From IMG/VR virus record IMGVR_UViG_3300012573_000004: 64,000 nt of DNA. One strand, given 5' to 3'. Source of the stretch: a virus (lineage: Duplodnaviria; Heunggongvirae; Uroviricota; Caudoviricetes). The notes under the pieces are model-generated. The model was not told the DNA's origin and ran no database searches. It saw only the letters and a program-made list of their open reading frames with translations. Made by a program: the position numbers and the translations under genes. Below, in pieces: positions 4,693 through 56,623 of this stretch (the stretch's first letter is position 1; each line of letters starts with the position of its first letter).

Positions 4693-4735
4693 TGTCCCCT
4701 TTATACCTGTGCAGTGTTCAATGACACTTTGTGTC

Positions 4736-7610: not shown

Positions 7611-7626
7611 CATTTAGTAAATAGAA

Positions 7627-7660
7627 AACCTCTCCCCTTAGTGGGAGTGGTTTTCATTTT
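7627..7660 (+). terminator. Rho-independent terminator after the GHKL ATPase gene
   Basis: Imperfect stem acctctccc/gggagtggt followed by a T-run. Confidence 0.5.
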
Positions 7661-7860
7661 TTATTTTCAATGATTTTGTGTCCCTTTGGAAGTATTCTAT
7701 CCTGCATACTAGACAACATGATTGCTGTATGATACAATTGAACACGTAAGAAAAACACACCAGAAAATATCAAAAAATGTAGTATATCTACTTGTCAGAA
7801 CCATGACTGACTGATATACTAATGAAATATAACCCAATCATTTATGAAAGGAACAAAGAA

Positions 7861-8688
7861 ATGGCACAGCCACTATCTTTTACTATCATTTCTCAAGATG
7901 ACACTTCTATCCTCTCTTTTGTAGATATGACTACAGGACAGTCTGGAAATCTCCCACAGTGGTCTAGTCTTGATAAAAAGTCACAAAACACCATCATGGA
8001 TATCATTAAAAATCCAGATAGTGTAGACGGTGATCCTATCAAGGCTATCTATGATGCAGCAAGCAACTATAACTCCAATGCTATCCAAGAGATCCGCAGC
8101 AAGCTAGGTATCACAGTAGATATTGATAATATCTACATTGGTTCTATTGTTTTGCCTAAGACTTTCCAAAAGCTACTGGGAAATGTTGATACACTAGAAG
8201 AAGCACAAAGCATTGTTGCTTTTGCTAAGGATCTAGAAAACAATCCTGGTGAGCACTGCAAGGAAGCACTTATTGAGTGGCTAGTAGCTAATCCTAGCTT
8301 GTCTTTTGCTCCAGATGGTCGCATCATTGGCTACCGTGCAGTTGATGACAAGTTCCTTTCCTATCACAGTGGTTATGGCATTGTCAATGGAGAAGAGTTT
8401 TCTAACTCTAAGCTAGATAGCACTCCTGGAAATGTTTTGCAGTTCCCTCGTTTTATGGTAGATCAGAATACTGATAAGCATTGTTCTATTGGCCTCCATG
8501 TGGGTACATGGAAGTATGCTTCTACATTTGGACATCAAAAGCACATTTCTGTTGCTTTCAAGGCTTCTGATGTAGTCTCACCACCATCTGATGCTCATCA
8601 GGAGAAGATCCGAGTTTCTGAGTTTGCTGTTCTAGAAGAAATCACTGAACCCTACCATGACACCATTGTTGTAGGTAAAACCTACTAA
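7861..8688 (+). CDS. Hypothetical protein
   Basis: Long ORF. Start moved to MAQPLSF because of the SD aaaggaacaaagaaATG. Confidence 0.5.
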   Translation: MAQPLSFTIISQDDTSILSFVDMTTGQSGNLPQWSSLDKKSQNTIMDIIKNPDSVDGDPIKAIYDAASNYNSNAIQEIRSKLGITVDIDNIYIGSIVLPKTFQKLLGNVDTLEEAQSIVAFAKDLENNPGEHCKEALIEWLVANPSLSFAPDGRIIGYRAVDDKFLSYHSGYGIVNGEEFSNSKLDSTPGNVLQFPRFMVDQNTDKHCSIGLHVGTWKYASTFGHQKHISVAFKASDVVSPPSDAHQEKIRVSEFAVLEEITEPYHDTIVVGKTY

Positions 8689-8732
8689 TAAATCAAGCAC
8701 CATCACTTTTTTAAGAAAGGACACTTTATACT

Positions 8733-9608
8733 ATGTCTAAGATCATTACCATTTTTTCTAATCCTGGAACCTATAGCTCTACGCTTCCATCTTCTTCAGT
8801 ATCTGACAAGGTAGAAGATAACAAAACTCTTACTGCTTTGGGTCATACTGTTGATGAAAAGAATTTTGATAAGTCACGTCATGTAGCATCTCTTTTCAAT
8901 GCTATTTCCCGTGGACGCAATGTTCATGCTACAGCGCAGCGCATTGGTCTTGTTTCTGATCATCCTGGTGAGGGTGGCAATGATATTGAATATCTATCAG
9001 AAGCCATGAAGAATATCTATGGCATTCATGGTGATAACGCCATTCTGGGTAGCATTGAGGTAACAGATGCACAAATGGAGTATCTAGAGTCTAATCCCAA
9101 TGCTATGGAGGTATTTATTGATAATGCAACCATTCAACCTGATAACCTTTCCTGGAATAAGGAAGATGTAGAGCACCGTGAGTCTTTGTGTGAAGAAGTT
9201 CACTCTTTTGCTAATGATGTCAATGATCTCATTGATGTAGCACGTGAAGCAGAAGATGAAGATGATGACTGGACTGATGACTGGGATGATGAAGATGATT
9301 GGAATGACTGGGATGAAGAAGATGATTGGGATGACTGGGATGACTGGGATGAAGAAGATGATTGGGATGAAGATGATGATTGGGGTGAAGATGACTACAG
9401 TGTAGAAGAAGATAATGAGGATTCTAATACAGGAGTCAACTCACCCTCACAGATCAAGGATGATGAATATATCAGCATTGAAGATCTTAGCCCACATGCA
9501 CAGCTTGTAGTTCTAACCCCAGAAGAACTAGAAAAGCTGAAAAAGCACCCACGTTTTGCTAATGCAGAACAGCTAGAGCTTTCCTTTGATGATGTAGATG
9601 ATGAATAA
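8733..9608 (+). CDS. Highly acidic protein with a tandem (D/E)DW repeat tract (DDWTDDWDDEDDWNDWDEEDDWDDWDDWDEEDDWDEDDDWGEDD)
   Basis: ORF with the SD aagaaaggacactttatactATG. Low-complexity D/E/W repeat. Terminator follows. Confidence 0.6.
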   Translation: MSKIITIFSNPGTYSSTLPSSSVSDKVEDNKTLTALGHTVDEKNFDKSRHVASLFNAISRGRNVHATAQRIGLVSDHPGEGGNDIEYLSEAMKNIYGIHGDNAILGSIEVTDAQMEYLESNPNAMEVFIDNATIQPDNLSWNKEDVEHRESLCEEVHSFANDVNDLIDVAREAEDEDDDWTDDWDDEDDWNDWDEEDDWDDWDDWDEEDDWDEDDDWGEDDYSVEEDNEDSNTGVNSPSQIKDDEYISIEDLSPHAQLVVLTPEELEKLKKHPRFANAEQLELSFDDVDDE

Positions 9609-9925: not shown

Positions 9926-10112
9926 CAATGATCACTCACCTTTCAAAATATCTTTACTAATCTTATTGATTCTACAGGAATAATCCCCTGTGCTTTTGTC
10001 TATATTGATAGTAGATTTTAGTATAACACCAAAAGGATGTGTAGTCATTTTGTTCTTGGTAAGATAATCCACATATCTTATAATCATCACAAGAAAAGAG
10101 GATAGGTTATCT

Positions 10113-11906
10113 ATGGCAAGAAGAAAGACACGCAAATCACCCGCTAGGCGCTCACGTAAGCGCTCAACATCTTCTAAGAAGTCAACTACCCTTAATAGCT
10201 CACAGAAGTCCTTAAAACAGCGTCAGAAGGCTCCTTGGGATAGGTTGAAATTAGCAGGATACAGTACCCCTATTATCTATCAATTCCCGTGGGAGGATAG
10301 AGCATTATCTAAAGTGGCACAAGCTGAATACTTCCCTGGTATTGGGTATGTATCTTTGAAAGAAAATCCTCTCTTTAAAGACTATAGGATAAAAAACTAC
10401 TCTTGGGAGAAGTTCATAGAAGATAAAACTAGCAATACAACATCTACTCCTTTCCCAGAAGGAGAAGATCCTTATGTTTTAAGAGAAGATCAAAAAGAAG
10501 ATGTTGCAACTATCATTAAAGCTTATAATGCTGGTGCTCCTGAATTCTTGATTGCCAATGCTACTGGTACAGGAAAAACAGTTACTACCCTTGCAGCATT
10601 AGATGAGCTTAATCCTCACAGTGTTCTTATAGTATGTCCTACAGCAGTTATTCCTGTATGGAGAAGACATATTGAAGATATGGGTGATAAGGGAAGGAAG
10701 TATGTTATTATCAACTATGAATCCTTGAAGAAACTTGTGTCCCCTCCTGATGAAGCAGTTAAAGCTAAAAAGGCAGCAACTCAAAATAAACACATTTCTC
10801 TATCAGGAAAACCTTATACACATTTTGATGCAGTTGTCATTGATGAAGCACACAAGACTAAAAACCCTACTGCACAACAATCACGCATATGCTCTATGAT
10901 CTCTGCGCATGCACGCTTTACTCTAAGGCTCACAGCTACCCCTGGAAAGAATCCTTCACAGCTTCATTACTTGTATAGACTTTTATCTTTTAATACTGGG
11001 GATAACATTGAAGTAAAAGATGATAAAGATTTCTCCCGCTATATTTCCTGGTGTAAAAAGCATCATGTTGATGGCATTGTCTCTGCTCCTTTTGGAAATG
11101 GTATTACCTTTGAAGGCGGTAGTGACTCTGTAAGAGCTATGGAGAAGATACTCTATGGAAAAACTACCCACGGTGTTACAACAGCCATAAAGAAGAAACC
11201 ACACAATTGGGATAAAGTAATAAGACAACCCTACCCTATTGACATTTCTGCACAAGAAAAACAGGACTATCAACTTCTAGTAGAAGATGTAAAAAACATT
11301 ATGCTCAATGCTGGAAAATCTAGAAGAATGGATATGTCTAAAGGTATTGCTGCAATGATGAAGATGCGTCAAAAAGCTGGTCTTTTAAAAGCATCACATA
11401 TTGCCAACTACACACAGTATTGTGTTCAAGATCTAGGAGAACAAGTAGTTATATCTACTGTATTTCACAACACTGCAGAAGTCATTGAAGAAAAACTTCA
11501 TTCCTTAAAGATTGACTGTGTAACTATCACAGGAAAAGACTCTGCTGAAGACAAAGAAGATAAAAGACTAGCCTTTCAACAAGGTAGAGTCCCTGTAGTC
11601 ATCACCTCTATTACTACAGGTATTTCCTTACACAGCAATGAAGAATCAGTAGGAGGAAACTCTACTCCTCGCAGGCTCATTGTAGGAGATATCCACTTTT
11701 CTCCTATTGAGCATACACAGCTAGAGGGAAGAATCAACAGGAATGGAGAAAGCGGGATTGTAGTCATTCCTATGCTTGCTGATACAGTAGATGAGAAAGT
11801 TGTATCTACTTTACTTCATGGTGTAGAAACTCAATCTATTCTTCAATCACATGGCGATGAAGATGATATTGCTTTTCTTGCAGATGCACTAGGAGTAAAA
11901 CTTTAA
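10113..11906 (+). CDS. SNF2/DEAH-box superfamily-2 helicase with a basic N-terminal tail
   Basis: Walker A GTGKTVTT. DEAH box VVIDEAHKTKN. Motif VI QLEGRINRNGESG. SD aaaagaggataggttatctATG. Confidence 0.75.
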   Translation: MARRKTRKSPARRSRKRSTSSKKSTTLNSSQKSLKQRQKAPWDRLKLAGYSTPIIYQFPWEDRALSKVAQAEYFPGIGYVSLKENPLFKDYRIKNYSWEKFIEDKTSNTTSTPFPEGEDPYVLREDQKEDVATIIKAYNAGAPEFLIANATGTGKTVTTLAALDELNPHSVLIVCPTAVIPVWRRHIEDMGDKGRKYVIINYESLKKLVSPPDEAVKAKKAATQNKHISLSGKPYTHFDAVVIDEAHKTKNPTAQQSRICSMISAHARFTLRLTATPGKNPSQLHYLYRLLSFNTGDNIEVKDDKDFSRYISWCKKHHVDGIVSAPFGNGITFEGGSDSVRAMEKILYGKTTHGVTTAIKKKPHNWDKVIRQPYPIDISAQEKQDYQLLVEDVKNIMLNAGKSRRMDMSKGIAAMMKMRQKAGLLKASHIANYTQYCVQDLGEQVVISTVFHNTAEVIEEKLHSLKIDCVTITGKDSAEDKEDKRLAFQQGRVPVVITSITTGISLHSNEESVGGNSTPRRLIVGDIHFSPIEHTQLEGRINRNGESGIVVIPMLADTVDEKVVSTLLHGVETQSILQSHGDEDDIAFLADALGVKL

Positions 11907-12004
11907 TCTTTCCTGTGGATTTCACATATATAACTTCGTTATGATATAGTTTTCAACTATGAACATTTGCACATATCTTTTGTCACGAAGAGAAGAGGAA
12001 AAAC

Positions 12005-12388
12005 ATGGCAAAAACTTACCAAACTCATATCATGTGGTCAGGTCACGGAGATGACATCTACAACCAACCTGTCAGTCTTCTAGCTTCTGGAGAAGACAAT
12101 GCACGAGAGATGTTTAGCAACATTGTCTCTGAAGGTCTTGCTATTAAAAATGATGGTCTTTTCCTAGCAGCTGTTTCACCAGAAATGACTGAAGAGGAAA
12201 TCAATACCTATTCTGATGATAAGGAAGCACTCTGTGCAATCATCAAAAGTGAAGATGAAAAGTTCTCTCTTGGATCACTGATTAAAGAATATGCTACCAG
12301 CAATGATGACTGGGCAGAAGGTTCTTTGACTGTTATCTATGATAATGATGAAACTGATGCTGATGTTACTATGACTAACCGTGGATAG
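12005..12388 (+). CDS. Small acidic hypothetical protein
   Basis: ORF with the SD agaggaaaaacATG, followed by a strong terminator. Confidence 0.55.
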   Translation: MAKTYQTHIMWSGHGDDIYNQPVSLLASGEDNAREMFSNIVSEGLAIKNDGLFLAAVSPEMTEEEINTYSDDKEALCAIIKSEDEKFSLGSLIKEYATSNDDWAEGSLTVIYDNDETDADVTMTNRG

Positions 12389-12404
12389 TTCTATACAATA
12401 GAAA

Positions 12405-12442
12405 CCCCCTAGCAAAGAATAATCTTGCTAGGGGGATTTTTT
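12405..12442. terminator. Bidirectional rho-independent terminator (ccccctagcaa...ttgctaggggg plus T6) between convergent genes
   Basis: Read in the sequence. Confidence 0.85.
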
Positions 12443-12464
12443 GTGTCCCTTTTATATAAAGAGA

Positions 12465-13769
12465 CTACTCATTGTCCTTCTCTTCATTGTTTTTCCCTTG
12501 GGAAGTATTATCTTCTGACTCTTTGTTTTCTTGTCTATTATCCTCCAGTGGAATAGCTCCAGCTTTCTCCATAGCTTTGTGATAAGACTTAGCAGCTTTT
12601 TCTTTCTGCTTTCTTCTCTCACGAAGTTGCTGAGTAGACTGTGATTCATCTGTTTCCTGATAACGGAATTGAGGAACAACCCAACCACGGTTTTGAGGGC
12701 TAGAAGAACCTCCTACACCCTTCTTTTTGTTGGTATTAGCAAAACGAGCCTTAGTCAAGGAACGTCCTACCTGTGCAATAGTTCCAGCAAAGTTAACCCT
12801 TTGATCATCAGGGAGATTTTTAGCGTTATTAGCAATCATTCCACGGCGAGTGGTAGCAGCATGAAGAGAATCAAATTCACCCAACTTGACAGTGACATCT
12901 TTACCTCTGGTATTGGTAAGCATATGTCCTAGTTCTTGAGTGTTTTTATCCACTGGAGAAGCATCCTCAAAAGAGGTTGCTACAGTAGTGCGCATTGACA
13001 CAACATACTTGCCATCTTTGTTTTCTGTAATATGCATGTCATGGCGTCCCTCTACTACAGATCCATCTGGCATAGAAAGACGAGTCATTTTAGTCAAACT
13101 GTCAGCAGCTTTACTACCAATCTCTTCTCCATCAATCTTTTTTGGAGGTCTAGTTGACTCCTCTTTTCTCCATGCAGAATCGGCACCAGTTTCTACCCAT
13201 GTAGATGCACGCTGTAGCTGTTCATCACTAAGATCATCAAGTTCTACTTTTTGAGGTTTTCCTGTAGTGTAGTCAATCCCTGATTTGTTGCGTTGTGCTC
13301 TAGGAGAAAACTCTGCACCACGGTTGATTGCTTCTTGTCTAAGTATTGGTCTTTCACTAATAAACTCATGATAGTCCTTATAGGAATCATCCCTTCTAGC
13401 GATACCTTCTTTCAAGAGCTTATCATAACGCTCAATCTTGCCTTGCTTTTCCTCCCACAGTCTTAGAGCACCTTGCTTAGAAGGAGAAGGTTTGCGTTTA
13501 GGCAAAGAGTCTTGCACCTCTTTAATCTGCTCTGCAAGGTACTCTTGTCCAGCTGGAGTAGCATAAAACACACGGTTTGCCTGCTCCATGCGAAGCTCAG
13601 CATTGTGTAGGCTTTTAGCTACTTTTTCTGGCATAGGGTTGTCATTGCCGCCATCTTCAAAAGGTTGTGCTTGTGCTTGTGCCTTTTGAAGATTTTTCCT
13701 TGCTGCTGCATGACGTTTTCTACCACTATTAGAACACCTTGGGCCTGGTCTTGCTCTACACATGTTCAT
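12465..13769 (-). CDS. Hypothetical protein (basic N- and C-termini, Q/K/E-rich)
   Basis: 434-aa ORF with no recognisable motifs. Confidence 0.5.
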   Translation of the reverse strand: MNMCRARPGPRCSNSGRKRHAAARKNLQKAQAQAQPFEDGGNDNPMPEKVAKSLHNAELRMEQANRVFYATPAGQEYLAEQIKEVQDSLPKRKPSPSKQGALRLWEEKQGKIERYDKLLKEGIARRDDSYKDYHEFISERPILRQEAINRGAEFSPRAQRNKSGIDYTTGKPQKVELDDLSDEQLQRASTWVETGADSAWRKEESTRPPKKIDGEEIGSKAADSLTKMTRLSMPDGSVVEGRHDMHITENKDGKYVVSMRTTVATSFEDASPVDKNTQELGHMLTNTRGKDVTVKLGEFDSLHAATTRRGMIANNAKNLPDDQRVNFAGTIAQVGRSLTKARFANTNKKKGVGGSSSPQNRGWVVPQFRYQETDESQSTQQLRERRKQKEKAAKSYHKAMEKAGAIPLEDNRQENKESEDNTSQGKNNEEKDNE

Positions 13770-13928
13770 CCCTCTTTCTTTTATATATTATTTGTTGTAA
13801 TAAGATTACATTGTTTAATAATAACAGTGTCCCCTATCACTGTGCATTAGATGATTTTTGACTTTTTATCCACTTATGTCTATTATAAAAATACACATAG
13901 GAAAACAACTACTAGAAAGGATATACCA

Positions 13929-14536: not shown

Positions 14537-15292
14537 TTACATCCTTGGACCTGTGCTTCCTACTGCAACAGCAAAAAGTGATACAATAACAAACAGAAAT
14601 AGCACTATCAATGGTAGCAAGAGTGCTACCCAGTTTATCACCTTAGATGCTTTATCTTTTTCATAGGAGTTATCTAGTATAAATAGGTAGTAGAATGGAA
14701 GAATGATGCCAATTCCAGTAAATAATGACACTACTAGGTTAATAATGGCAAAGAAAAGCTGATTTCCCTGTGTTTTCAAAAACTCAGGCCAGTTGCTACT
14801 ACCATTGCCAGTATCACCAGAATGGATGAAATCTTCATACTGTTGCTTCACCTGAGCAGGTGGAACAGGAGGAACTGGTCCTCCTCCAGTGAAATAAGAG
14901 TTTCCTTGCTGCTGTTGCATCTGGCTATCTTCATCATAGTCATATCCATCATAGTGTGAAGAGGAAAAGTCTTCATACTGTGCAGCATTGGATTCTGGAA
15001 TATTATCTACATCAGCAAAAGGAGTTCTGCGAGGAGTGTATTCTTCTGCAGTGTCTTCTTCCTGGTAATCACTATCATCATTGATGAAATCATCACCAGT
15101 GTAGTATTCATCAAGACCACTGTCAGTATCTGGGTAGTAATCTTGATCTTCAGTGCTATCTTCTTCTGCTACAGCATGTGTATCTTCCTGCTCTGTATAA
15201 GGAGTAGCTGTAGAGTTATTTTCTTCTGTACTATCCACCTCATCATCATAAGGTGCATGGGTGGGGTATTTATTGTTTTGTGGTTGAGTCAC
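14537..15292 (-). CDS. Membrane protein with an acidic Q-rich N-terminal region and two C-terminal TM helices. Start uncertain (possible GTG).
   Basis: ORF 14537..15430. There is no early ATG. A GTG at 15292 has the SD gaaggtga. C-terminus has TM segments LVVSLFTGIGIILPFYYLF and LLLPLIVLFLFVIVSLFAVAVG. Confidence 0.4.
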   Translation of the reverse strand: MTQPQNNKYPTHAPYDDEVDSTEENNSTATPYTEQEDTHAVAEEDSTEDQDYYPDTDSGLDEYYTGDDFINDDSDYQEEDTAEEYTPRRTPFADVDNIPESNAAQYEDFSSSHYDGYDYDEDSQMQQQQGNSYFTGGGPVPPVPPAQVKQQYEDFIHSGDTGNGSSNWPEFLKTQGNQLFFAIINLVVSLFTGIGIILPFYYLFILDNSYEKDKASKVINWVALLLPLIVLFLFVIVSLFAVAVGSTGPRM

Positions 15293-15489
15293 TATGGTGT
15301 CACCTTCCAATTGTGAGGTTAAAAGATTGAAAAAATGTATATAACATATGATAACAGGAAAGGTGCTTATCCTGTTATAGTTGTTACTGGTGTGTTTTAA
15401 AAAAGTTTGTGTCCCTTTTTTATAACACAAAAATAACCTCTTTTCCTTGTAAAAGATTAACCTACAGGGAAAAGAGGTTATGAGCTATC

Positions 15490-26641: not shown

Positions 26642-28036
26642 CTACCAACTCACTAAAGCTGAGTTGGTTTCCTGCTTCTTAGAGGATACAGTCCCCTGCA
26701 TTGCTGCAGGTTTCTGTAGGTCTACAACCCTCTCACTATGCTCATAGAAAACATAGTCCAATTGGTCCAAATAAGAGTTTTGTCCAATCAGCACAGGCGT
26801 TAATTCCCTATGTTCCATAGGTATATTATGTTCTGATAAACCAAAATCTATCATGTTTTTAGCTGCATGAATATCACGATCTTCTGTAGCACCACAGTAT
26901 TTACATACATATTCTCTTTCTTTCAAAGAGTGTTTAGTGTTTTTATCACATGAAGAACACCATTGTGTAGTAGGAGACCACTTATCCACCATAAAAGCTC
27001 TTGGATGAGCTTTCAAAAGAGATTTAACTCTACCTAGAACACTGTGATGGAGTTTTCTTCCAAAGCGCATCTTCCATGCACTCAAACTTTCATCTTGAAA
27101 GAAGACATACTCATTTTTCATCAAAAGAGAAACTATTTGTTTAGCAAGATTATCTTTCTTGTTATTAAGTTTGTCATATTCCCTGTTTAGTTTCTCCTTT
27201 GTAATGAAGTAGTTATGAGAAAGTGGAATATAAGACAAACCTTCTTGATTCTTTCTCTTTTTTGCTTGTCTATATTGTCTATCTAGTTTCCTTTGTAGTC
27301 TTTTTACCCTTTGTGGCACTTCAATAGTAGTACTTATCTTCTCACCAGTTGATAGGGTTATGTGAGTTGCAATTCCCATATCAATCCCAATAGCAGTATT
27401 AGGAATGAAATCATCTACATCTACTTGTGAGGTATAAGCTGTTATTTTAATGAAGAACCCTGATGCTTTTTTAATGAGTTTAGCATTAGCTAACTCAGCA
27501 TCTTGAGGTATTTGATGCAGTCCATAAACTTTAAAACTTCCAGGTATCTTTTGAATACTTGCTTTCTTTTCTAGAAAGTTTATTTTATAGGTAGTTTTGT
27601 ATTGCTTGAGATCAATACTTTGAACCTTGCGTGCAAATTTCAAACTTCCTACTTTATGTCCCTTTTCTTTGAGTGCTTTCAAAGAAGACAAGTTTCTAGA
27701 GATGGAAGAAACAATAGACTGTTTCAACTGAGAACCTAGATAACAAATCTTCCTATCTTCCATTTTTCCTTCCCTGTTCATCACAGGTACTGTTTTTCCA
27801 GGAATATAAGAAGTTGGTTTATCAGTGTTAAGAGCAGCATTGTATATCCATTTTGCTTCAAGAAACACCTTATCTAGCGCTTCTTTTTGCTGGAGGTTGA
27901 GTTTATCCATATCAACTTTTAGCTCATAAACTTTACATGTTTGTTGAGATCTACGCTTGCGAGTTTCTTGTCTTGTTCTCGCTATTTGTGCATTTTTCTC
28001 ATTTGCATAAACTTTCTTATTTACTATAGCTGACAT
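26642..28036 (-). CDS. tnpB: TnpB (IS605 OrfB) RuvC-like nuclease
   Basis: RuvC-I IGIDMGIATHITLSTGEK. Zinc finger CSSCDKNTKH...CKYCG. RuvC-III DRDIHAAKNMI. SD agaggtgaataataccATG. Confidence 0.8.
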   Translation of the reverse strand: MSAIVNKKVYANEKNAQIARTRQETRKRRSQQTCKVYELKVDMDKLNLQQKEALDKVFLEAKWIYNAALNTDKPTSYIPGKTVPVMNREGKMEDRKICYLGSQLKQSIVSSISRNLSSLKALKEKGHKVGSLKFARKVQSIDLKQYKTTYKINFLEKKASIQKIPGSFKVYGLHQIPQDAELANAKLIKKASGFFIKITAYTSQVDVDDFIPNTAIGIDMGIATHITLSTGEKISTTIEVPQRVKRLQRKLDRQYRQAKKRKNQEGLSYIPLSHNYFITKEKLNREYDKLNNKKDNLAKQIVSLLMKNEYVFFQDESLSAWKMRFGRKLHHSVLGRVKSLLKAHPRAFMVDKWSPTTQWCSSCDKNTKHSLKEREYVCKYCGATEDRDIHAAKNMIDFGLSEHNIPMEHRELTPVLIGQNSYLDQLDYVFYEHSERVVDLQKPAAMQGTVSSKKQETNSALVSW

Positions 28037-28114
28037 GGTATTATTCACCTCTTTTCTGATATTTTGCTATGCTCTTACTTAAAGAGTATAGCACATAAGA
28101 AAGTGATAAGTAGA

Positions 28115-44996: not shown

Positions 44997-45848
44997 TTAA
45001 ATCAAGTTGGCAAATGTCATAAGAACATTCCTGTCACCTGTAGGATAGACATCAAAATTAACAGATGGTTTGAGGTTGGCTACCTGAGATACAACCTCAA
45101 AAGTCTTATCAGCAGGGAAGGAAACCACTGCTGTTACAAAGGAGTTCTTGTTAACAGTGGAGATAATATCTACTGCTTCTTCTGCGCTGTCAACCTCTGC
45201 ACTATAAGAACGCACATCCTTATCATCTACCTTATTGAGAACAGTGACCACGGTGGGGTTTTCTTTGAGATAGTCTGTAATAAGCTTCTTAGCATTGCCA
45301 ATATGAGAAAGATCCTCATCATAATCAGGATTGTCAATGATAATAACAATCTTGGAATTTTCACCTAGATAGGCAATAAACTCAGTGTCTTTGCTTTCAT
45401 TTTCATCACCAAGAATATCCCACATATTCTTTTTGGTCTGCAGGGTAGCATCACTAACAGTGATAGTCTTGTTCTTATACTTTACCTCAGTAGAGATATC
45501 CTTAAAGCATTGTGAGCACTCTTGTGAATTCTCATTTGAATCTTCTTGAAATTCTGTTTCATCTACAACAGGAAGTCCAGACATCATATCTTCCTCAGAT
45601 GTTGATTCCTTATCACAGCAACAATCACTCTCACACTTGTTGGAAGAGTCTTTGCCAAGAGAAGATTCATTCTTTAGAAGAATAGAAACAGCATCAGGGA
45701 TGGATTCTTTGAGATTGAGGTTTTTAAATCCTCCCTTAGGATCATTGATAATAAAGTTAAAATCCTTTTCAGTCTCTTTTCTAATCTGAGGAAGAGACTC
45801 TTCCACCTGGTCAATAATCATGTTGAGCAAATCTTCAGAATAAGACAT
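44997..45848 (-). CDS. Hypothetical acidic protein
   Basis: ORF. SD aaggagaacatatATG. Confidence 0.5.
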   Translation of the reverse strand: MSYSEDLLNMIIDQVEESLPQIRKETEKDFNFIINDPKGGFKNLNLKESIPDAVSILLKNESSLGKDSSNKCESDCCCDKESTSEEDMMSGLPVVDETEFQEDSNENSQECSQCFKDISTEVKYKNKTITVSDATLQTKKNMWDILGDENESKDTEFIAYLGENSKIVIIIDNPDYDEDLSHIGNAKKLITDYLKENPTVVTVLNKVDDKDVRSYSAEVDSAEEAVDIISTVNKNSFVTAVVSFPADKTFEVVSQVANLKPSVNFDVYPTGDRNVLMTFANLI

Positions 45849-45931
45849 ATATGTTCTCCTTATGTGCTAGAGATAACGTTTACGTTTTCCAACTCTACCA
45901 TAGAGGAAAAAGAGTTATCAACTGCAGTTTA

Positions 45932-46282
45932 CTATGCTGCAGCAATGCAGTCTTTTTCCAGTTGAGGAATCTCAGAAGAAATGCGCTCAATCTTTTCAGT
46001 GGAGCGGTATCCATCTCGTACTAGATAATCACATTCTCTTAAAGCCTTATCTAGTTTTTTGCCTTCTGGAGTATCTTGCAAGGAAATATTTTTCTCTTTT
46101 AGATTTAAGCGCACTTGCTCTACTTGTTGTTGCACTCTATCCCTAATCTTTTTGCTTTTCATGTGTGCTCTTTTCTGCTTCTTTTCCTCATTTCCAGCCA
46201 GAAACAAAAAAGTAACCAGTCCAACCAAGAGAATGATAGCAACTGCAACAATACCAATAGTGATCCAAGTACTTATGCCCAT
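45932..46282 (-). CDS. N-terminally membrane-anchored coiled-coil protein
   Basis: TM segment ITIGIVAVAIILLVGLVTFLFL followed by a charged helical region. Confidence 0.5.
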   Translation of the reverse strand: MGISTWITIGIVAVAIILLVGLVTFLFLAGNEEKKQKRAHMKSKKIRDRVQQQVEQVRLNLKEKNISLQDTPEGKKLDKALRECDYLVRDGYRSTEKIERISSEIPQLEKDCIAAA

Positions 46283-47415
46283 AGAAATCTAATCCTTTTT
46301 TATTGAAAAACTTTTTTGTATATCCCTTCTACTGTAATAACAGACAATGGTATAATCCAAATTTTAACAAAGTCAAGGATGTAGGGTTGATTTTTAAAAT
46401 ATACCAACTATCTTGTACAAAGAACAAAAATGTTACATGGGAAAACCATGTCCCTTTTAGTGATTGCAAAAATAAAAGCTCTATTTTTCATTCTAAGCCT
46501 TTGAAAACACTTATATGGGTATTTGTACAAATCTCTCCTCTGCAACGCTCTCACAGCCACACAGGGTATCTATTTAGCTCATTTTTTATACAGCATCAGA
46601 AGACATCTTTTCTATATAGGATCTTCTTCTCCTTGAGTTGTTTTTCATCTCTTTGCACAAAAAAAGCAAATCCATTTTAAGAAGATAAACTCTTTTCATG
46701 TAGGACCCTACCTAGATCTTGTGCTCAACTTCTTAAAACGTCTCATAGAACAAAAACTTCTATTTTTACCCTTGAAAAATCACAAAATGATAACAGAATA
46801 ATAACAGAATAATATACTTATTTTTCTCAGTTTTTTCTTAGGAAAATATGAACTTCAGTAGGGGGTAATGTTAAGGTTTCAATTTTTACCAATTTTCACC
46901 ATATCAGCAGGTAGATTTATGTTTTTTGCAAAAACTAGACAGAGCTGTCTATAAAGTTATACAAATGTTATCAAAATTAGTGTTTCTGTGAAATACCTGT
47001 GAATCCTGATTTTTGACAGATCTGTGCTTAAACCCAAAAACATTATCTGGAAGAGACATCTAAGAAGTTCATGGAAGTGAATATTCAAGACAACTAGCAA
47101 AGATTGTCTAAAGCTTCATGGAAATAATGTTTCAAGATCTTTACAAGTTTCAAGATAAGTTGTCTTATGTTCATCTGCAGAATCTTTTTTCAAAAGCTTC
47201 AGCAGATGTCTTAAACGGAATGCTAACGCATTCCTAGAGAAGATTACTTAGAGGTGAATCAAATTGCATAATTTTGTTTAATTTAACCCCCCTATAATTC
47301 CCCCCTAAACAATAGTCACGTGGTAAGTAGACCGAGCCGTCTATCAGAGATTTCACAGAATACAAGATTTTCAGACTATCCCCTGGTAGGGGTATGTTTT
47401 TCCACCTGGGAAAAC

Positions 47416-47450
47416 AGTTTATTCACATTTTTATCCACAGGGTTGTGAAT
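47416..47450. promoter_or_regulatory. Cluster of three DnaA boxes (TTATTCACA, TTATCCACA, TGTGAATAA) inside a 1.5-kb gene desert; candidate replication origin
   Basis: Exact or near-exact matches to the TTATNCACA consensus in both orientations within 35 bp. Flanked by AT-rich DNA. Confidence 0.5.
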
Positions 47451-48065
47451 AACTCTAAATAAGCTTTCTACCTGCTGTTATGTAAAAATGTGATCAAACT
47501 CATATAGGGTTGAAAATGACTTGTTTTTATACCTTGAGCTGTAAGTTAATCTTTTGTTAACCTAATGTTCATCTATTATTTTTATTCATAAGCGGTTTTT
47601 TGCGAAAAAAATGACAAAGGGACATGAAAATAGAACCTTTTTTAGTAGTTAAAAATAACGATTTTTATGTGTTCTACTTCACAAAAACGCCCTAAAAATT
47701 CAACCAATTTCTCCATATAAACGATTTTTTATAAGGTCTGCACTTTTGGTATAAAAAGTGCAAAAACTTAACATAATGGAGATGTTTTCTTGGATTTCTT
47801 TTTCTCAAGTATTGTTTTTGTGTCCCTTTCTCCAAATTCTGTTAGTGGATACAACCCATCATTGGATATATCTTCCTATAGCAAAAAATCACACCTAGAT
47901 CTCTTGTTTTAAAATATCTCTGCAACAGAAGTGAAACACCCCTGAAAAACTAAAAAATATAGCCACATGAGGAAAGAAAAACACATTGAGGTATAAATAC
48001 TCACAAAAACACTTTCAACCGCTTAGAAATCAATATAAAGCTTTTGTTCTTTTTTCTTCTAGAGA

Positions 48066-48108
48066 TTAAAAAAAAGAGACTGATCTTTTAAAAAGACCAG
48101 TCTCTTTT
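48066..48108. terminator. Bidirectional terminator (near-perfect 16-bp stem aagagactgatctttt/aaaagaccagtctctt, A-run plus T-run) downstream of minus-strand gene 48152..49135
   Basis: Read in the sequence. Confidence 0.8.
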
Positions 48109-48151
48109 CAACAGTTGCACAAATGCTTATATTTTTCTATAGAGCAGAAAA

Positions 48152-49135
48152 CTACCACTGTCCATAGATTTCAGAATGTGCTCTGATATTCATGTTTCCA
48201 GAAATAATACCTCCATGGCAAACTGTATAATCTAGAACATGAACGTTTTCACATACCATGCTATCTCCTTGGATTGTACAGTGTCCATAAATATGTGAAG
48301 TGCCACACACCTGAGCGTTATCTTTTACTACAGCATTGCCATAGATATGAGATTGTCCATAACACAGTGCTTCCCCTGATACTTCTGCATGTCCATAGAC
48401 AACACTGTTGTTATAGATTTCAGCGCTTCCCTTAATCACACAATGACCATAAGCTTTAGCTTCATCTGATAGACAAGCATGACCAGAAACATGACAATAT
48501 CCTTTAAGCTGAACATTGTCTACAACAATAGAAGAACCATCAACTCGCGCATAGTCTGAAACTACAACATCTCCACAAACATGAGCATTGTTTCCTACTT
48601 GAGCATCATCTTTTACCTGTGCCTTTCCATAGATACAAGCTTTTCCACAAAGATAAGCATAACCATAGATATCAGCACTTCCACTAACTTTCACATTGTC
48701 TCTAACAATAGCCCTTTGATGCACTTGAGCATTATCAAAAACTTGACTGTCATCTCTAATGATTGCACTGCTATAGACATGAGCATTGCCATATACTTGT
48801 GCATTTCCTAGAACAAAAGATTTGCCTGAAACATGAGCTTTATCATACACCTGTGCATTGTTTTTGATAGTTGCATAATCTTTTATTACTGCATTTCCAT
48901 ATACTTGTGCAGTGTCTTTTGCACAGCTAGATCCAGAAAGAACAGCATTGCCATATACCTTAGCATTATCAAAAACCCATGCGTTATCAGAAAGGTTATG
49001 TGGTGATTCTACAAAACCTCCTTTATCTCCTTGAGATACACCCTGATCAGGAATATCTTTGAGTGCTTGAATCCTGTGTAGGGTGTGTCCTGAGACAACA
49101 ATGGTGTCATGGGTAAGTCTAAAATAGGTATCCAT
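48152..49135 (-). CDS. Beta-solenoid repeat protein built from ~10-residue units ([DN]-x-A-x-V-[YFC]-G-[NK]-A-x-V), function unknown
   Basis: At least 25 consecutive degenerate repeats (NAKVYGNAVL, TAQVYGNAVI, NAQVYDKAHV, NAQVYGNAHV...). The same repeats are visible at DNA level. Confidence 0.6.
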   Translation of the reverse strand: MDTYFRLTHDTIVVSGHTLHRIQALKDIPDQGVSQGDKGGFVESPHNLSDNAWVFDNAKVYGNAVLSGSSCAKDTAQVYGNAVIKDYATIKNNAQVYDKAHVSGKSFVLGNAQVYGNAHVYSSAIIRDDSQVFDNAQVHQRAIVRDNVKVSGSADIYGYAYLCGKACIYGKAQVKDDAQVGNNAHVCGDVVVSDYARVDGSSIVVDNVQLKGYCHVSGHACLSDEAKAYGHCVIKGSAEIYNNSVVYGHAEVSGEALCYGQSHIYGNAVVKDNAQVCGTSHIYGHCTIQGDSMVCENVHVLDYTVCHGGIISGNMNIRAHSEIYGQW

Positions 49136-49246
49136 AATTGATAAGCTCTCCTTTTAATGATATATAGTGCTTTTTAACTACCAATGATAGACTTATGTGC
49201 ATCAAAAGTCAATAACATAGACAACATCATTAACATTTTAAGAATA

Positions 49247-49290
49247 GAAAAAATCCCTGTGGAAAAACTCCACAGGGAAAAGTTTTTTTT
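49247..49290. terminator. Bidirectional terminator (tccctgtgg/ccacaggga, A-run plus T8)
   Basis: Read in the sequence. Confidence 0.8.
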
Positions 49291-49423
49291 ATTCTGTGCT
49301 AATGGCTGCTAGTTGCTCGGCTGTAGCAATAAGAACAATGAGACCCCATGCTAAAGCCAATGGCATCATCACAGCACTAACAGCAGCAATAACGGTATTT
49401 TTTACCATATGATATCACCTTTC

Positions 49424-49828
49424 TTAAACAAGATTAGGTTGTGCAGTTTTGTGGAAATCCAGCTCAATAGAGCGCACATCATAAGTAGATGCAGCCTTAG
49501 ACAAGTTGATGATCATGAAGTTATCATCATCACCTGCAAGATTATATACCTCATTCATAGAATCTAGAGCAAAAATATCAGCATCAGTCCAGTTTCGTGC
49601 AGCAGCATTCCTATGATAGTTGTCTTTACCCAAATCCAGCTTGGAGTAATGAATCATGAAGACTTCTTGCAGAATCAGATCCGTTACAGCATGTACTCCT
49701 CGCTTGTTGAGCATCATAGTGATGTCATTGTCATTGAGAACATTTTCAATCAAAGATACAGTGGAATCAAAGGTGTTCTTGGTAGATGCCACCACTCCTG
49801 TGATAACCCCAGCACCCTGGTATTGACA
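49424..49828 (-). pseudogene. 3' portion of a small-protein gene split by the IS605-like insertion. Paralog of 52245..52670. Continues from the 5' fragment at 51902..51925.
   Basis: Translation ...CQYQGAGVITGVVASTKNTFDSTVSLIENVLNDNDI... aligns with the intact paralog from residue 9 onward. No in-frame ATG start: the track ORF 49424..49795 begins at a GTG, and the frame upstream of 49828 hits stop codons. Confidence 0.6.
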
Positions 49829-49879: not shown

Positions 49880-51346
49880 CTAAATGGAGGTGTTATCATC
49901 TATAACCTTGACTGGATTGATAGCATCATTGAAATCAGCCTTGATTGAAGGTTTGAAAAACTCTTCTCTCATACCTTGCGGTATTGTAGGTCTTATAATC
50001 TCTCCACTACCATTCATATGATGTGCATCATATGCGGGCAAGTCAGTGCCCTGTAAAATATACTCATATAGAGCTAGGATGTTGCAAGCAGCATTGGTAT
50101 CAGCATTGCTATCATATCCACAATGCTTACAAAGAAAAATAGATTGACTCTCTCTATTCTTCTTATTTGTATATCCACACTTGCTGCACCTTTGAGAAGT
50201 GTAATAAGCTGGAACATACACTACTTGCTTTCCATTGTTTAAAGCTTTATATTCCAACATGGTACTTATTGTGGAAGGTGAAGCTGAAAGAAAAGATCTA
50301 TTCATTCCTCTCTTTTTCTTTCCACCTTTTTTAGTCATGTTCTTAACCTGGAGATCTTCTAGAACAATCACACCATGTTCTCTAATGATGAAGGTTGTTT
50401 TTTCTTGAAGCCAAGAGTTTTTATATGCAGAAATCTTCTTGGAATAATGAGCACATTTTCTCTTGTTTTCTTGGTAAGTATTTCCCTTCATCACCTTGTA
50501 CATGTTTTCTTTCCCACCAGCTTTTTTAGCTCTAGATCTAGCCTTACCCATTTGCTTTTGATAATACTTCTTCTTAGACTCATACTTATCTAAGAGCTTT
50601 TTATCAAAAGACATAGTTTTTCCATCACTAGTAGCTAGTGGAATGACCCCTCCACGATCAATGCCTACTGCTTTATTAGTTGCAGTAGAGTTCTTCTTAT
50701 TGCAAGCTGGGGTATTAGTAAAAACAACTGTCTTTGAAGACCAATTGACTATGACACTGGTATAGGGGTTAATGTCATCATAGGTTTTTACCCTAATGGT
50801 AATCTTCCAAGAAGATTTGTCCTTGGAGTTTTTCTTTTTATCTTTGGGATTTCTACCACCAATAACAATGACTCCTGTGTTTTTACCAGTTTTATGGTAT
50901 CTAGCATTAGTACCATTGTTATACCAGCATACAAAATATTGATCTTCTTTCTTTTTAGATTTAAATCTAGGCATAGAACCAGGATTAGATACACCTTTTT
51001 CTCTTAATGTTTTTCTTCTTTTTACAGCAGAAAACCATTCAATGTTTTCTTTCTTTTCTGGAGCTTGCAAAATCATTGTTGGAATAGCAGAAAGGAAAGA
51101 ATACTCTATCCTTGCATTTTTGTCAGTGATATTTGCAACATCACTTCCAATGGGGACAAGATTTTTATTCTTGTCATATTTCTTTCTTTTAGATCTATGC
51201 TGATTAAATCTTGTTCTGTATCCATCACATAACCAGTTCATAATCTTATCAGGAGATGTAGTATAAGAGTCAGTACCTTGAATACAACCACGGTAGATAG
51301 GAGCACCTGAGTGTTTAACACTAATGATTTTAGCCTTTTGACTCAT
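49880..51346 (-). CDS. tnpB: TnpB (IS605 OrfB) RuvC-like nuclease
   Basis: RuvC-I AVGIDRGGVIPLATSDGK. RuvC-II VIVLEDLQVKNM. Zinc finger CSKCGYTNKK...CKHCG. RuvC-III SNADTNAACNILA. Confidence 0.8.
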   Translation of the reverse strand: MSQKAKIISVKHSGAPIYRGCIQGTDSYTTSPDKIMNWLCDGYRTRFNQHRSKRKKYDKNKNLVPIGSDVANITDKNARIEYSFLSAIPTMILQAPEKKENIEWFSAVKRRKTLREKGVSNPGSMPRFKSKKKEDQYFVCWYNNGTNARYHKTGKNTGVIVIGGRNPKDKKKNSKDKSSWKITIRVKTYDDINPYTSVIVNWSSKTVVFTNTPACNKKNSTATNKAVGIDRGGVIPLATSDGKTMSFDKKLLDKYESKKKYYQKQMGKARSRAKKAGGKENMYKVMKGNTYQENKRKCAHYSKKISAYKNSWLQEKTTFIIREHGVIVLEDLQVKNMTKKGGKKKRGMNRSFLSASPSTISTMLEYKALNNGKQVVYVPAYYTSQRCSKCGYTNKKNRESQSIFLCKHCGYDSNADTNAACNILALYEYILQGTDLPAYDAHHMNGSGEIIRPTIPQGMREEFFKPSIKADFNDAINPVKVIDDNTSI

Positions 51347-51449: not shown

Positions 51450-51845
51450 ATGGATGGAAATATTAAAACAGAAAATCACATTACTTATGACTGCCATTAC
51501 CATGTTGCATGGTGTACCAAGTATAAGCTTGAACTCTTAAAAGATGGGGTTGATGAGCGTTTAAAGGAAATCATTTATGATGTAGCACAAGAGTTTGATG
51601 CTGTTGTTGAAGAGTTAAAAATCACAAAAGATCATGTTCATTTAATTTTGTCATGCTACCCTCATATTACTCACAAAATAATCAGAACAATGAAGGGTAG
51701 ATCTTCTAGTCTTCTACGAGAGGAATACAGTTTCATCAATACTAGAACCCCTTCCCTGTGGACAAGACGTTATTTCATTGCTACTACTGGTGAATCACAG
51801 CTAAGAAATATTAAAAGGTACATAGAAAATCAAAAGAGGAGATGA
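51450..51845 (+). CDS. tnpA: IS200/IS605 Y1 (HuH) transposase TnpA
   Basis: HuH motif HVHLIL. Catalytic Tyr region RRYFIATTGES. Length 131 aa. Confidence 0.8.
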   Translation: MDGNIKTENHITYDCHYHVAWCTKYKLELLKDGVDERLKEIIYDVAQEFDAVVEELKITKDHVHLILSCYPHITHKIIRTMKGRSSSLLREEYSFINTRTPSLWTRRYFIATTGESQLRNIKRYIENQKRR

Positions 51846-54826: not shown

Positions 54827-56623
54827 CTACATTAACAAAGAATGCACACAATGCATATCTTTTCTAGCATAGTTGGTTTTAGCAGCCTTTTCAGGGTCCT
54901 GGAGAGTATCGTATCTATCTCCATCCACTAAAACTGTCACATCATCATAGTGTGTAGTGGTGCTGTAAGTATTTCCCACCTCCTCCACAAACTTTTGTCG
55001 TGCTTTCTTGAACTGTCTTCCTTTCTTTTTATTATCACATTTTCCTGTAGGTTTTCCTTTCTTCTTTCCAGTTGATTTATAGGATAGAGTATCCTTTGTT
55101 ATAGGTGTTCTTAGATTCTTTTTATTCTTATCTCTTTTATAAGATTTAGATTTTCTTCTAGTAGAAGACATTTTACAAGCAGTAGGTATTGCTCTTTTTC
55201 CTATGTTGTATGAAGCATTGATATCTCTATCTACATCTTCTTTGCACTGTGTGCAATGAGCATTCTTCCATGTATTAAATGTAAGATTACTTCCACAGAA
55301 ATAGCATTGCGTGCTTGTATAAGCAGGATTGACAGTAATAACTCTTCCACCATTGAGTTCTACATATTCAGTAGTCCTTTTAACTAGTTCCCCTCTATTC
55401 CATCTACCACTGCTCATAGTATTTTCAATCCATGAAAGATCTTCAAAAGCTACAACAGCGTTATCCCATATATGTGATATATAAGCTATTTCACCTGCTG
55501 CAATGATTGCAAGTTGCCTTTTCTTGTTGCTGTTTTTCTTTCTTTGAAGAGATATTTCATTTTTGATATCCATATACTTTTTGTCAAAAATAGATGTCTT
55601 GTCTAACTTTTTATGTAGTGAAGATATTTGTCTAGATGTTGCTTTGATACTATTAGATAAAGAATGCACTCTTCTTGACAAAGATGTACTATGCACCACT
55701 CTTCCATTTTTGTCAATGACTGAAACTACTGCATAGTCACTAATATTGACATCTACGCCAATAAAATAGTTGCTGGTTATATCTTTGTAGATGTAAGGGT
55801 ATTCCATAGAAAAATGGAATAATACTTTGTTGTCTTTCACAGTTATATCAGGCAAGCATACTTTTGATGCTTCAAAAAACCTTGATGTGTCAAAATGAAA
55901 GTATAGCAAATACCACTGTCCATCAATAACCATTCTTAGACAAATATGACCATCTTCAAAAGGATTGTTGGTGATATATGCATAGCCTTTATCAACAATG
56001 CTTAAGCTTATCTTGTCCCTTATATCACAAGGGGTTCCTATATGGGCTGTTCTCTTCCATCCTGAACTGATATATTTATCACTTGATCCATTGAAAGCTT
56101 TTATTCTTTCTAACCATGATGTAGCTTCATCTACTACTCTTCTGTGGTACAACCATTGTCTTCTGGAGTTGCCACTGGTTTTTGATACATTCTTTGTGTG
56201 TTCTTTGTAGGATATACCACCATTTGAATAGCTAATATGAGATTCTTTATGTGATGGAATAACACCTTGTGGAAGATTTAACCCTAGAGAAATACCTATT
56301 TTACTTGCATTGTTGAAACCATTGTACCTTTCCATATCATCAAGCAAGTGGATATCATTTCTCAGTGTCCATTCAGCTGCTGCTGTTATTGATTGTATTT
56401 CTTCTTTCAACCTAGCAAGAATGAGCTTTGTATCATCAACATCTTTTCCTGATAAATCATGAATGGAATAAGGTGTTGCAGTAAAGCTTTTATAACACTT
56501 ATTGCTGTTTTTGCTCAATATAATCACCTGCTTTAGATAACAAGCACAAGCTTCAATCGCTATAGCTTCTGCTGCGTGTATGACTATACCACAAGACAAA
56601 AGAAGAAAAAAGGGGAAGCACAC
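54827..56623 (-). CDS. TnpB-like / Cas12-like RuvC nuclease (598 aa with an N-terminal extension)
   Basis: RuvC-I IGVDVNISDYAVVSVIDKNG. RuvC-II AVVAFEDLSWIE. Zinc finger CYFCGSNLTF...CTQC. RuvC-III DVDRDINASYNIG. The ATG at 56623 has the SD caaggagtaaaaagtacATG, and this start lies inside the direct repeat. Confidence 0.7.
   Translation of the reverse strand: MCFPFFLLLSCGIVIHAAEAIAIEACACYLKQVIILSKNSNKCYKSFTATPYSIHDLSGKDVDDTKLILARLKEEIQSITAAAEWTLRNDIHLLDDMERYNGFNNASKIGISLGLNLPQGVIPSHKESHISYSNGGISYKEHTKNVSKTSGNSRRQWLYHRRVVDEATSWLERIKAFNGSSDKYISSGWKRTAHIGTPCDIRDKISLSIVDKGYAYITNNPFEDGHICLRMVIDGQWYLLYFHFDTSRFFEASKVCLPDITVKDNKVLFHFSMEYPYIYKDITSNYFIGVDVNISDYAVVSVIDKNGRVVHSTSLSRRVHSLSNSIKATSRQISSLHKKLDKTSIFDKKYMDIKNEISLQRKKNSNKKRQLAIIAAGEIAYISHIWDNAVVAFEDLSWIENTMSSGRWNRGELVKRTTEYVELNGGRVITVNPAYTSTQCYFCGSNLTFNTWKNAHCTQCKEDVDRDINASYNIGKRAIPTACKMSSTRRKSKSYKRDKNKKNLRTPITKDTLSYKSTGKKKGKPTGKCDNKKKGRQFKKARQKFVEEVGNTYSTTTHYDDVTVLVDGDRYDTLQDPEKAAKTNYARKDMHCVHSLLM

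Follow-up and report, generated by a model that had tools for sequence, protein, structure and literature searches.

Why should a large phage keep almost two kilobases of its DNA free of genes, and could this be the place where its replication starts? We considered this question for a gene desert at positions 46283-48151 of a stretch of 64,000 nucleotides from the IMG/VR virus record IMGVR_UViG_3300012573_000004 (Caudoviricetes), hereafter the window, which has 37% G+C and uses the standard genetic code. The desert lies between the gene of a 116-amino-acid (aa) membrane protein (45932-46282, - strand) and a hexapeptide-repeat gene (48152-49135, - strand), and a preliminary description of this DNA had seen in most of it a candidate oriC-type origin, belonging to a plasmid, a phage or the chromosome. 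Among these three the choice is clear: the replicon is that of an uncultured phage from the human gut, about 380 kb in size, and is neither a chromosome nor a plasmid, because the window encodes homologues of rIIA and rIIB (5043-8688) and a clamp loader, and because the contigs concerned are about 380 kb long. As for the desert, it very probably contains an element, selected at the level of DNA, that would recruit the DnaA protein of the host, as judged from sequence comparison.

The region 46680-48151 had been described as having no open reading frame (ORF) of 60 aa or more, which is correct (maximum 47 aa). In fact the desert extends over 1,869 bp, because gene callers ignore the ORF 46303-46680 (125 aa) at its left edge, which is low-complexity noise and is left uncalled in public assemblies; public gene calls on three assemblies of the identical sequence leave the whole of 46283-48151 empty. 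The standard code covers 82.5% of the window, and a gene hidden by an alternative code was rejected, as no ORF of at least 100 aa arises in the desert when TGA or TAG is reassigned, and only a reassigned TAA would create one. The region is A+T-rich, as had been claimed, with 57-74% A+T in 100-bp windows. In every relative the corresponding position, immediately downstream of the hexapeptide-repeat gene, is likewise occupied by a gap. TnpB omega-RNA or the ends of an insertion sequence (IS) were also considered as the content of the desert and discarded: the nearest TnpB gene (49880-51346) is two genes away, and relatives without that IS retain the desert.

Using an alignment of 11 distinct sequences, we could delimit within the desert a conserved and sharply bounded non-coding core of 947 bp (46669-47615). 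In the two most distant relatives, L007 and L008, this core aligns over 99% of its length with 81% identity; in the same two loci both flanks of the desert are unalignable, the hexapeptide gene reaches 68% identity and the remaining flanking genes 77-90%. Among closer relatives the identity of the core is 94-95.5%, compared with 85-92% in the flanking genes, and overall its conservation equals or exceeds that of most flanking genes. The core is not protein-coding, because its alignment contains many insertions and deletions of 1 or 2 nt. We conclude that 46669-47615 is a non-coding control region, acting at the DNA level, that is under purifying selection.

The core carries three DnaA boxes in both orientations, a cluster that the preliminary description had recognised and of which the exact coordinates are 47419-47452. 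Box 1 (47419-47427, + strand) reads TTATTCACA and appears in relatives as TTAT[T/A/G]CACA, the N position alone being variable. Box 2 (47431-47439, + strand), TTATCCACA, follows after 3 bp, a spacing that is fixed in the relatives, and shows no variation in sequences other than L034, where N is A, and L012, where position 1 is C. Box 3 (47444-47452, - strand) is TTATTCACA in inverted orientation, again with the N position alone varying, and is separated from box 2 by 4 bp (3 bp in L007 and L008). The window contains seven perfect matches to TTATNCACA, three of them in this cluster, while shuffled sequences give 4.77 per window; calculated from the shuffle rate, the chance expectation of three boxes within 40 bp is about 2e-5. 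Box-like 9-mers are also in excess over the 947-bp core, with 7 against 1.8 expected at up to one mismatch and 32 against 15.5 expected at up to two mismatches.

The variation within the boxes follows the consensus. Each of the three degenerate N positions takes more than one base across the 11 distinct sequences (box 1, T/A/G; box 2, C/A; box 3, T/C), but only 1 of the 24 specified positions does so, and 28% of the columns vary in the rest of the core (Fisher tests: specified against N positions, p=0.0014; specified positions against the rest of the core, p=0.009). Because substitutions hit the N positions and spare the specified ones, the boxes are real and selected, that is, genuine predicted DnaA sites, at which we infer that DnaA binds. 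A lack of conservation in related genomes had been named in advance as the observation that would speak against them, and the boxes are conserved. The weaker boxes that had been listed are present at 46998-47006 and 47846-47854, but with two mismatches each; the former is not retained as a box in the most distant relatives and the latter sits in a part of the desert that cannot be aligned to them. As a separate observation, a DnaA box with one mismatch, TAATGCACA, occurs in a divergent intergenic spacer (13769-13851), 16 nt upstream of a short run on the - strand that weakly resembles DnaA-trios (TTATTATTA).

The arrangement of the three boxes was then searched in GTDB, taking one genome per species, with the pattern TTATNCACA-N3-TTATNCACA-N3-4-TGTGNATAA. 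At least 120 loci match, against about 0.01 expected by chance according to our own arithmetic, and most of the matches listed come from Clostridia and other Bacillota, while the remainder include Selenomonadales and Rubrobacteraceae. The module is found upstream of dnaA in 67 of the 120 loci listed, in one fixed orientation and at a median distance of 256 bp (range 35-1326 bp); 6 of the 120 show other arrangements near dnaA, and 21 of the remaining 47 have too little sequence on the relevant side. The three-box architecture is a true DnaA module, because it recurs so far above the chance expectation and with a fixed placement upstream of dnaA. The 26 other listed loci (within L067-L186) have enough flanking sequence and no dnaA nearby, and could be prophages or other DnaA-box clusters.

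In C. difficile and B. subtilis, the rpmH-dnaA spacer is the oriC1 half of a bipartite origin, the unwinding of which takes place in oriC2 (PMC7561715). The phage copy shares with this dnaA-proximal module the identical architecture (box, 3 bp, box, 3-4 bp, inverted box), the middle box, which is usually TTATCCACA, and the use of the same N in boxes 1 and 3, found in 78 of the 120 loci listed and in the window. By contrast, the phage copy is without an adjacent dnaA, the nearest gene on the side of box 1 being, at a distance of 1.1 kb, that of the unrelated 116-aa membrane protein; it lies within a conserved, phage-specific block of 0.95 kb; and the phage window contains no partner oriC2 with DnaA-trios. 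A captured fragment of a host origin was considered and rejected, as no similarity to the 120 listed bacterial loci extends beyond the module of 34-50 nt.

The module is also present in viruses. We found it in 88 IMG/VR contigs (L187-L274) of 26-66% G+C, mostly in intergenic position, in no case with dnaA nearby and with mixed gene neighbours (terminase, portal, ligase, clamp loader, primase, endolysin). BLAST with the commonest viral version (33 nt) retrieved 122 GenBank phage records, 67 of them covering at least 80% of the query and the rest partial, from Streptomyces phages (125-133 kb), Microbacterium phages, the Lactococcus 949 group and T5-like Salmonella phages. One three-box architecture is common to the dnaA-proximal origin half of many Bacillota and, fully or partly, to long non-coding gaps, often of 1 kb or more, of many large phages, and the element studied here belongs to a known class, the DnaA-box clusters in non-coding DNA of mobile replicons. 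Some of the IMG/VR contigs, low in GC, have the module beside clamp-loader genes; kinship with these was considered and rejected, since tblastn with 51 proteins of the window returned nothing.

Two cultured phages allow a closer comparison. In Streptomyces phage Wakanda (L275 8000-8032) the module, in the same three-box arrangement with one mismatch in the first box, lies in a non-coding gap of 1.37 kb. Lactococcus phage 949 (L276 4001-4375) has seven perfect TTATCCACA boxes, an inverted pair and five more, in a non-coding gap of 1.06 kb located where clusters of small genes diverge. Like the desert, both gaps are non-coding; they are 1.0-1.4 kb long and lie among small genes. Neither phage has sequence or protein homology to the 380-kb phage, and phage 949 differs further by its seven perfect boxes and diverging clusters, compared with three boxes and co-oriented flanking genes here. 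We know of no DnaA-box gap of Wakanda- or 949-type phages that has been tested experimentally.

In the T5-like Salmonella phages the match to the module falls inside the terminal repeat. The conserved iss region of T5-like phages, which is untranslated, contains eight boxes in pairs with a 3-bp spacing, and these boxes have been argued not to be an origin; the T5 origins, as cited in the same preprint, were mapped near the centre of the genome, away from the box-bearing repeats (10.1101/866236). The likeness to the present element is threefold: iss is a long untranslated region with repeats, inverted repeats and palindromes (10.1101/866236), it is better conserved than coding regions, which also holds for the phage core, and its consensus boxes are paired 3 bp apart, as are boxes 1 and 2 here. 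The difference is that iss has about eight boxes in four large inverted repeats (IRC/IRD type) within a terminal repeat, and the desert has three boxes. The function of iss in T5 is itself only a proposal.

Is the element, then, a replication origin? The likeliest single reading, which we put forward tentatively, is a phage origin that depends on DnaA or is assisted by it. It is a plausible one, in which we infer DnaA binding, unwinding and the start of replication alike. After infection, host DnaA would bind the three-box module; a phage or host factor would bind two TAGAC-N6-GTCTA palindromes and act with DnaA; and one of two unstable A+T tracts (47546-47600 or 46774-46814) would be opened, upon which replication of the phage DNA would start. 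The anatomy of the conserved block is origin-like in that it combines two palindromes, tandem A+T-rich 11-mers and the least stable duplexes of the desert. The perfect palindrome TAGACAGAGCTGTCTA (46936-46951) is invariant in all relatives, and the second, TAGACCGAGCCGTCTA (47328-47343), has invariant 5-bp arms, TAGAC and GTCTA, with 3 of its 6 central positions variable; they are the sole perfect TAGAC-N6-GTCTA sites in 64 kb. The A+T-rich 11-mer GAATAATAACA is repeated 3.7 times at 46774-46814 according to Tandem Repeats Finder (TRF), two units being kept in L007 and L008, which bears out the short direct repeats that had been reported near 46790. Nowhere in the desert is the duplex less stable than in the 40-mer 46784-46824 (99.95th percentile in the window by nearest-neighbour stability), and 47546-47586 is at the 99.7th percentile of low duplex stability in the window. 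The latter is part of a conserved A+T-rich tract (47546-47600), a candidate unwinding element about 95 bp to the right of the boxes, which is nearly invariant across relatives. The two low-stability 40-mers are thus 95 bp (47546-47586) and 600 bp (46784-46824) from the boxes.

DnaA boxes are used by plasmid and P1 origins, and iteron-type origins of plasmids and prophages (P1 oriR, pSC101, F, RK2) use DnaA as a helper. Like these, the element has DnaA boxes beside A+T-rich DNA and repeated protein-binding sites in a non-coding block; unlike them, the desert has no iteron array or adjacent rep gene. The search for iterons that had been proposed accordingly gave no array of three or more iterons of 17-22 bp and no rep gene beside it, and found instead the 11-mer repeated 3.7 times, a pair of repeats of 47-55 bp and the two palindromes. 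With the bacterial BUS module the element shares the tandem pair of boxes 3 bp apart followed by a G-rich spacer (GGG), and A+T-rich DNA of low stability within 100 bp. It differs from that module in having no DnaA-trios, the rule for unwinding being at least three trios (NAN / 3'-GAT-5') within 16 bp downstream of a box pair (PMC8287927). Also in favour of an origin, oriC-like regions of phage G and of a Pseudomonas phage have been predicted in silico (PMC12484599, PMC11512268). A stronger oriC-like parallel is the gap of phage 949.

A number of results weigh against an origin. A hand check revealed no in-phase run of three NTN within 16 bp of box 2, there is no run of three [CT]TA or six NT[AT] on either strand of 45000-49500, and the inverted third box occupies the place where DnaA-trios are expected. 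In bacteria, the module marks the non-unwinding half of the origin, beside the dnaA promoter (PMC7561715). The minimum of cumulative GC skew that had been suggested as a check is not found at the site: over the window, which represents 64 kb of the genome of about 380 kb for all our asymmetry analyses, the cumulative skew falls steadily from about 20 kb to 64 kb. Intergenic GC skew is -0.07 to the left of the desert, -0.10 inside it and -0.09 to the right, without a switch, the polar motif GTGTCCC (20:0) keeps its orientation on both sides, and the flanking genes are co-oriented, all on the - strand. No initiator-like gene is recognisable beside the desert. The window has no dnaA (tblastn, E<=10), as had been noted, and neither have the related loci; the probe was a B. 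subtilis DnaA sequence, which found 73 dnaA genes in bacteria. The ORF 3489-4622, which had been labelled DnaN-like, could not be confirmed as such, as it matches no Pfam or PHROG family, and it is 43 kb from the desert. The phage brings replication proteins of its own, and phages of the T4 type start replication without DnaA. Finally, no consistent replication gene accompanies the module in the 88 viral contigs, and the box pairs of T5-like phages are in terminal repeats away from the mapped origins (10.1101/866236). These negatives, which cover 64 of the approximately 380 kb, are compatible with a unidirectional or DnaA-assisted origin. From the oriC-type origin of the preliminary description, the selected cluster of DnaA boxes and the conserved non-coding core are therefore kept, whereas the trios, the skew switch and the initiator gene are missing.

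Several of these results fit the main rival reading, a DnaA-binding cis element that is not an origin, as in T5-like and other large virulent phages, and that would act as an anchor, a sink or a sensor; we regard this as possible but somewhat unlikely. In one variant, bound host DnaA, which is largely membrane-associated, would hold or pause the phage DNA, following the injection-stop idea for T5; in another, the many phage copies would soak up host DnaA and so block initiation in the host, in the manner of a datA-like sink. Such a role is consistent with tandem boxes 3 bp apart in an untranslated region that is more conserved than genes, as in T5 iss (10.1101/866236), with the match of T5-like Salmonella phages to the module query within their terminal repeats, with the 88 IMG/VR contigs that carry the module in varied gene contexts and without dnaA, with its presence in the 1.37-kb desert of Wakanda, with the lack of a trio element and of a skew switch here, and with the bacterial counterpart being a non-unwinding oriC1/dnaA-promoter site. 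However, what the region does in T5 is also hypothetical, the number of boxes, three, is small for titration, a site some 272 kb along contigs of 379-382 kb does not seem terminal if the contigs end where the genome does, and a simple sink leaves 900 bp of additional conserved sequence, the palindromes and the unstable tracts unexplained. A broader form of the idea, which we consider rather doubtful, is that the module would be a portable "DnaA landing pad", borrowed from the dnaA-proximal half of bacterial origins by large virulent phages whose hosts are unrelated, and would serve as a non-origin device to capture, titrate or sense host DnaA, for instance to shut off initiation in the host or to time the phage programme. 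The phages concerned may be those of gut Bacillota, Streptomyces, Microbacterium and Lactococcus and the T5-likes, and phage factors would bind the two palindromes.

It is unlikely that the region controls early transcription, with DnaA as transcription factor at an adjacent promoter as at the bacterial dnaA promoter, so that expression of the downstream - strand genes (116 aa, 283 aa and others), or of a non-coding transcript lacking structure, would depend on the state of host replication. Among the bacterial matches listed, box 1 points towards dnaA from a module that lies upstream at a median distance of 256 bp, and box 1 here faces the co-oriented - strand genes; but the nearest gene start is about 1.1 kb away, compared with 35-1326 bp (median 256) among those matches. 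Arrays of small genes that look early follow the box-bearing gaps of Wakanda and 949, hairpins resembling terminators adjoin the boxes here, and an invariant TATAAT is found between C tracts. This TATAAT has no -35 element at a workable spacing, however, no convincing sigma-70 promoter was detected (10 weak matches against 8.7 expected) and the C-tract motif is unique in the window; C6-TATAATT-C6 was rejected as a phage promoter consensus because it is used nowhere else there. It is very improbable that the - strand of the desert encodes a large structured non-coding RNA and that the DnaA boxes are incidental. Large RNAs such as GOLLD and ROOL are known to be carried by phages, the - strand as a single sequence folds beyond its shuffles (z=-5.2, against -2.3 for the + strand) and its orientation is that of the flanking genes. 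Nevertheless, no Rfam family was found in the region at E<=10 other than at a best value of E=0.21, the only families in the window being tRNAs; RNAalifold, which had limited power with 10 sequences at 81% identity or more, gave an unfavourable covariation term (+2.1), with compensatory change in 6 of 258 pairs; and dozens of pairs are broken in L007 and L008. The conserved stems are invariant perfect palindromes, as expected for DNA bound by protein, and the restriction of box variation to N positions is likewise a signature of DNA-protein contact. Neutral spacer or decayed gene remnants, in which DnaA-like words occur by chance, would agree with the A+T richness of the region, the poorly conserved flanks of the desert and the insertion of IS elements nearby, even inside it in L004. 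This is the least credible of the explanations and scarcely worth retaining, being already contradicted by the pattern of the boxes and the conservation of the core: the core surpasses the hexapeptide gene in conservation and is on a par with other flanking genes, the expectation of a three-box cluster by chance is about 2e-5, and substitutions respect the DnaA consensus.

The replication origins of huge uncultured phages, and their cis-acting DNA in general, are essentially unmapped, and the present analysis provides a precisely bounded element of 947 bp with a clear and testable ligand, host DnaA. If it is an origin, it would give a handle for building replicons and for coverage-based estimates of the activity of gut megaphages; if it is not, it would point to a widespread and unexplained use of the host initiator by phages, and would make the question of the T5 "injection stop" testable in many systems. 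A side result may be the weightier one, namely that the module marks the dnaA-proximal region of many Bacillota and recurs fully or partly in long non-coding gaps of 88 or more contigs of IMG/VR, as well as in cultured phages of the T5-like, Streptomyces, Microbacterium and Lactococcus groups.

Other features of the core are less readily interpreted. Two imperfect direct repeats of about 47 and 55 bp at 47068-47169 (TTCATGGAA...TTCAAGA...TTGTCT) are weak evidence of a repeat family, as there are only two copies. The hairpin or palindrome GGAATGC-TAAC-GCATTCC (47217-47234) is invariant and hence uninformative as to RNA or DNA. The poly-C tracts that had been mentioned correspond to the invariant C6-TATAATT-C6 at 47287-47305. 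Directly to the left of box 1, at 47377-47416 on the + strand, are two short G+C hairpins, each followed by a T run as in terminators, the stems of which are partly broken in L007/L008 and L012/L034. Part of the core is bracketed by an inverted repeat of 32 nt (46884-46915 and 47467-47498, 75% identity) that decays in L007 and L008. Outside the element, a bidirectional intrinsic terminator with an 18-bp stem (48071-48109) ends the hexapeptide gene and forms the boundary of the desert.

The left edge of the core is a hot spot of rearrangement: L004 carries at 7532-9127 (window position ~46705) inserted DNA that includes a TnpB fragment and an ORF of 294 aa, L012 has at 10001-12899 a paralogue of the 283-aa gene together with a resolvase/TnpB-like pair, and L007 and L008 have at ~8664-9395 an extra gene of 239-241 aa. 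A metagenome scan with a 19-mer that is invariant in the core, CCCCCCTATAATTCCCCCC, added only four close relatives; the other 48 matches were rejected as relatives, being unrelated coding sequences or low-complexity DNA. The same 19-mer is also present in a family of unrelated human-gut contigs (among L016-L065), in coding-like sequence, a coincidence and not homology.

The DNA around the gene 48152-49135 was found with 100% identity on three metagenome contigs, the longest of 378,967 bp, and the contigs of relatives measure 382,212, 380,901, 363,210 and 332,648 bp; several relatives come from samples labelled human gut and others from other metagenomes. No close relative was detected in INPHARED, by DNA or by protein, or in IMG/VR when queried with two flanking proteins and one DNA pattern, and a search for homologues with the neighbouring hexapeptide-repeat protein gave unrelated repeat proteins only. 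The element lies about 272 kb into contigs of 379-382 kb, or about 72% along the longest. In the contigs k141_5510 (378,967 bp) and NODE_1 (382,212 bp), which originate from different samples and different assemblers (L001 and L004), the desert occupies the same coordinate (~270-274 kb) in the same orientation, and the orientation is common to all five long contigs. This shared position and orientation across assemblies suggests that the contig ends are non-random, and possibly represent defined genome termini or a terminal repeat.

A polar motif runs through the window. The 12-mer TTGTGTCCCTTT occurs 17 times with at most one mismatch, always on the + strand, against 0.6 expected. Exact intergenic copies are at 4729, 7676, 9684, 12441, 17141, 18793, 47818 and 53738, and one more, the ninth, overlaps at 15407 with the questionable 5' end (TTG start) of the ORF 14537-15430; the exact copies are mostly just past the terminators of + strand genes. 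Irrespective of the strand of the genes, the core GTGTCCC is distributed 20:0 and TGTCCCTT 21:1 between the + and - strands, so that the motif behaves like a putative orientation signal of the Chi or KOPS type. The preliminary description had rightly placed one copy of the 12-mer and its only inverted core copy in the desert. The former (47818-47829, + strand) lies in the less conserved right part, and the latter, TGTCCCTT at 47617-47624 on the - strand, is the sole reverse-oriented copy of the motif core in 64 kb, of which only GGGAC is kept in all relatives; a reverse copy of the 12-mer at two mismatches is within chance.

The remainder of the window also encodes, together with the clamp-loader-like protein, a SNF2-type helicase, and contains six scattered tRNA genes, one of which is a tRNA-Ile (412-484) with the anticodon TAT, unusual for bacteria. 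Three TnpB (Cas12f-like) genes are found within the 64 kb (26642-28048, 49880-51346 and 54827-56623); the second is paired with an IS200-type TnpA (51450-51845), and the TnpB copies are polymorphic between relatives.

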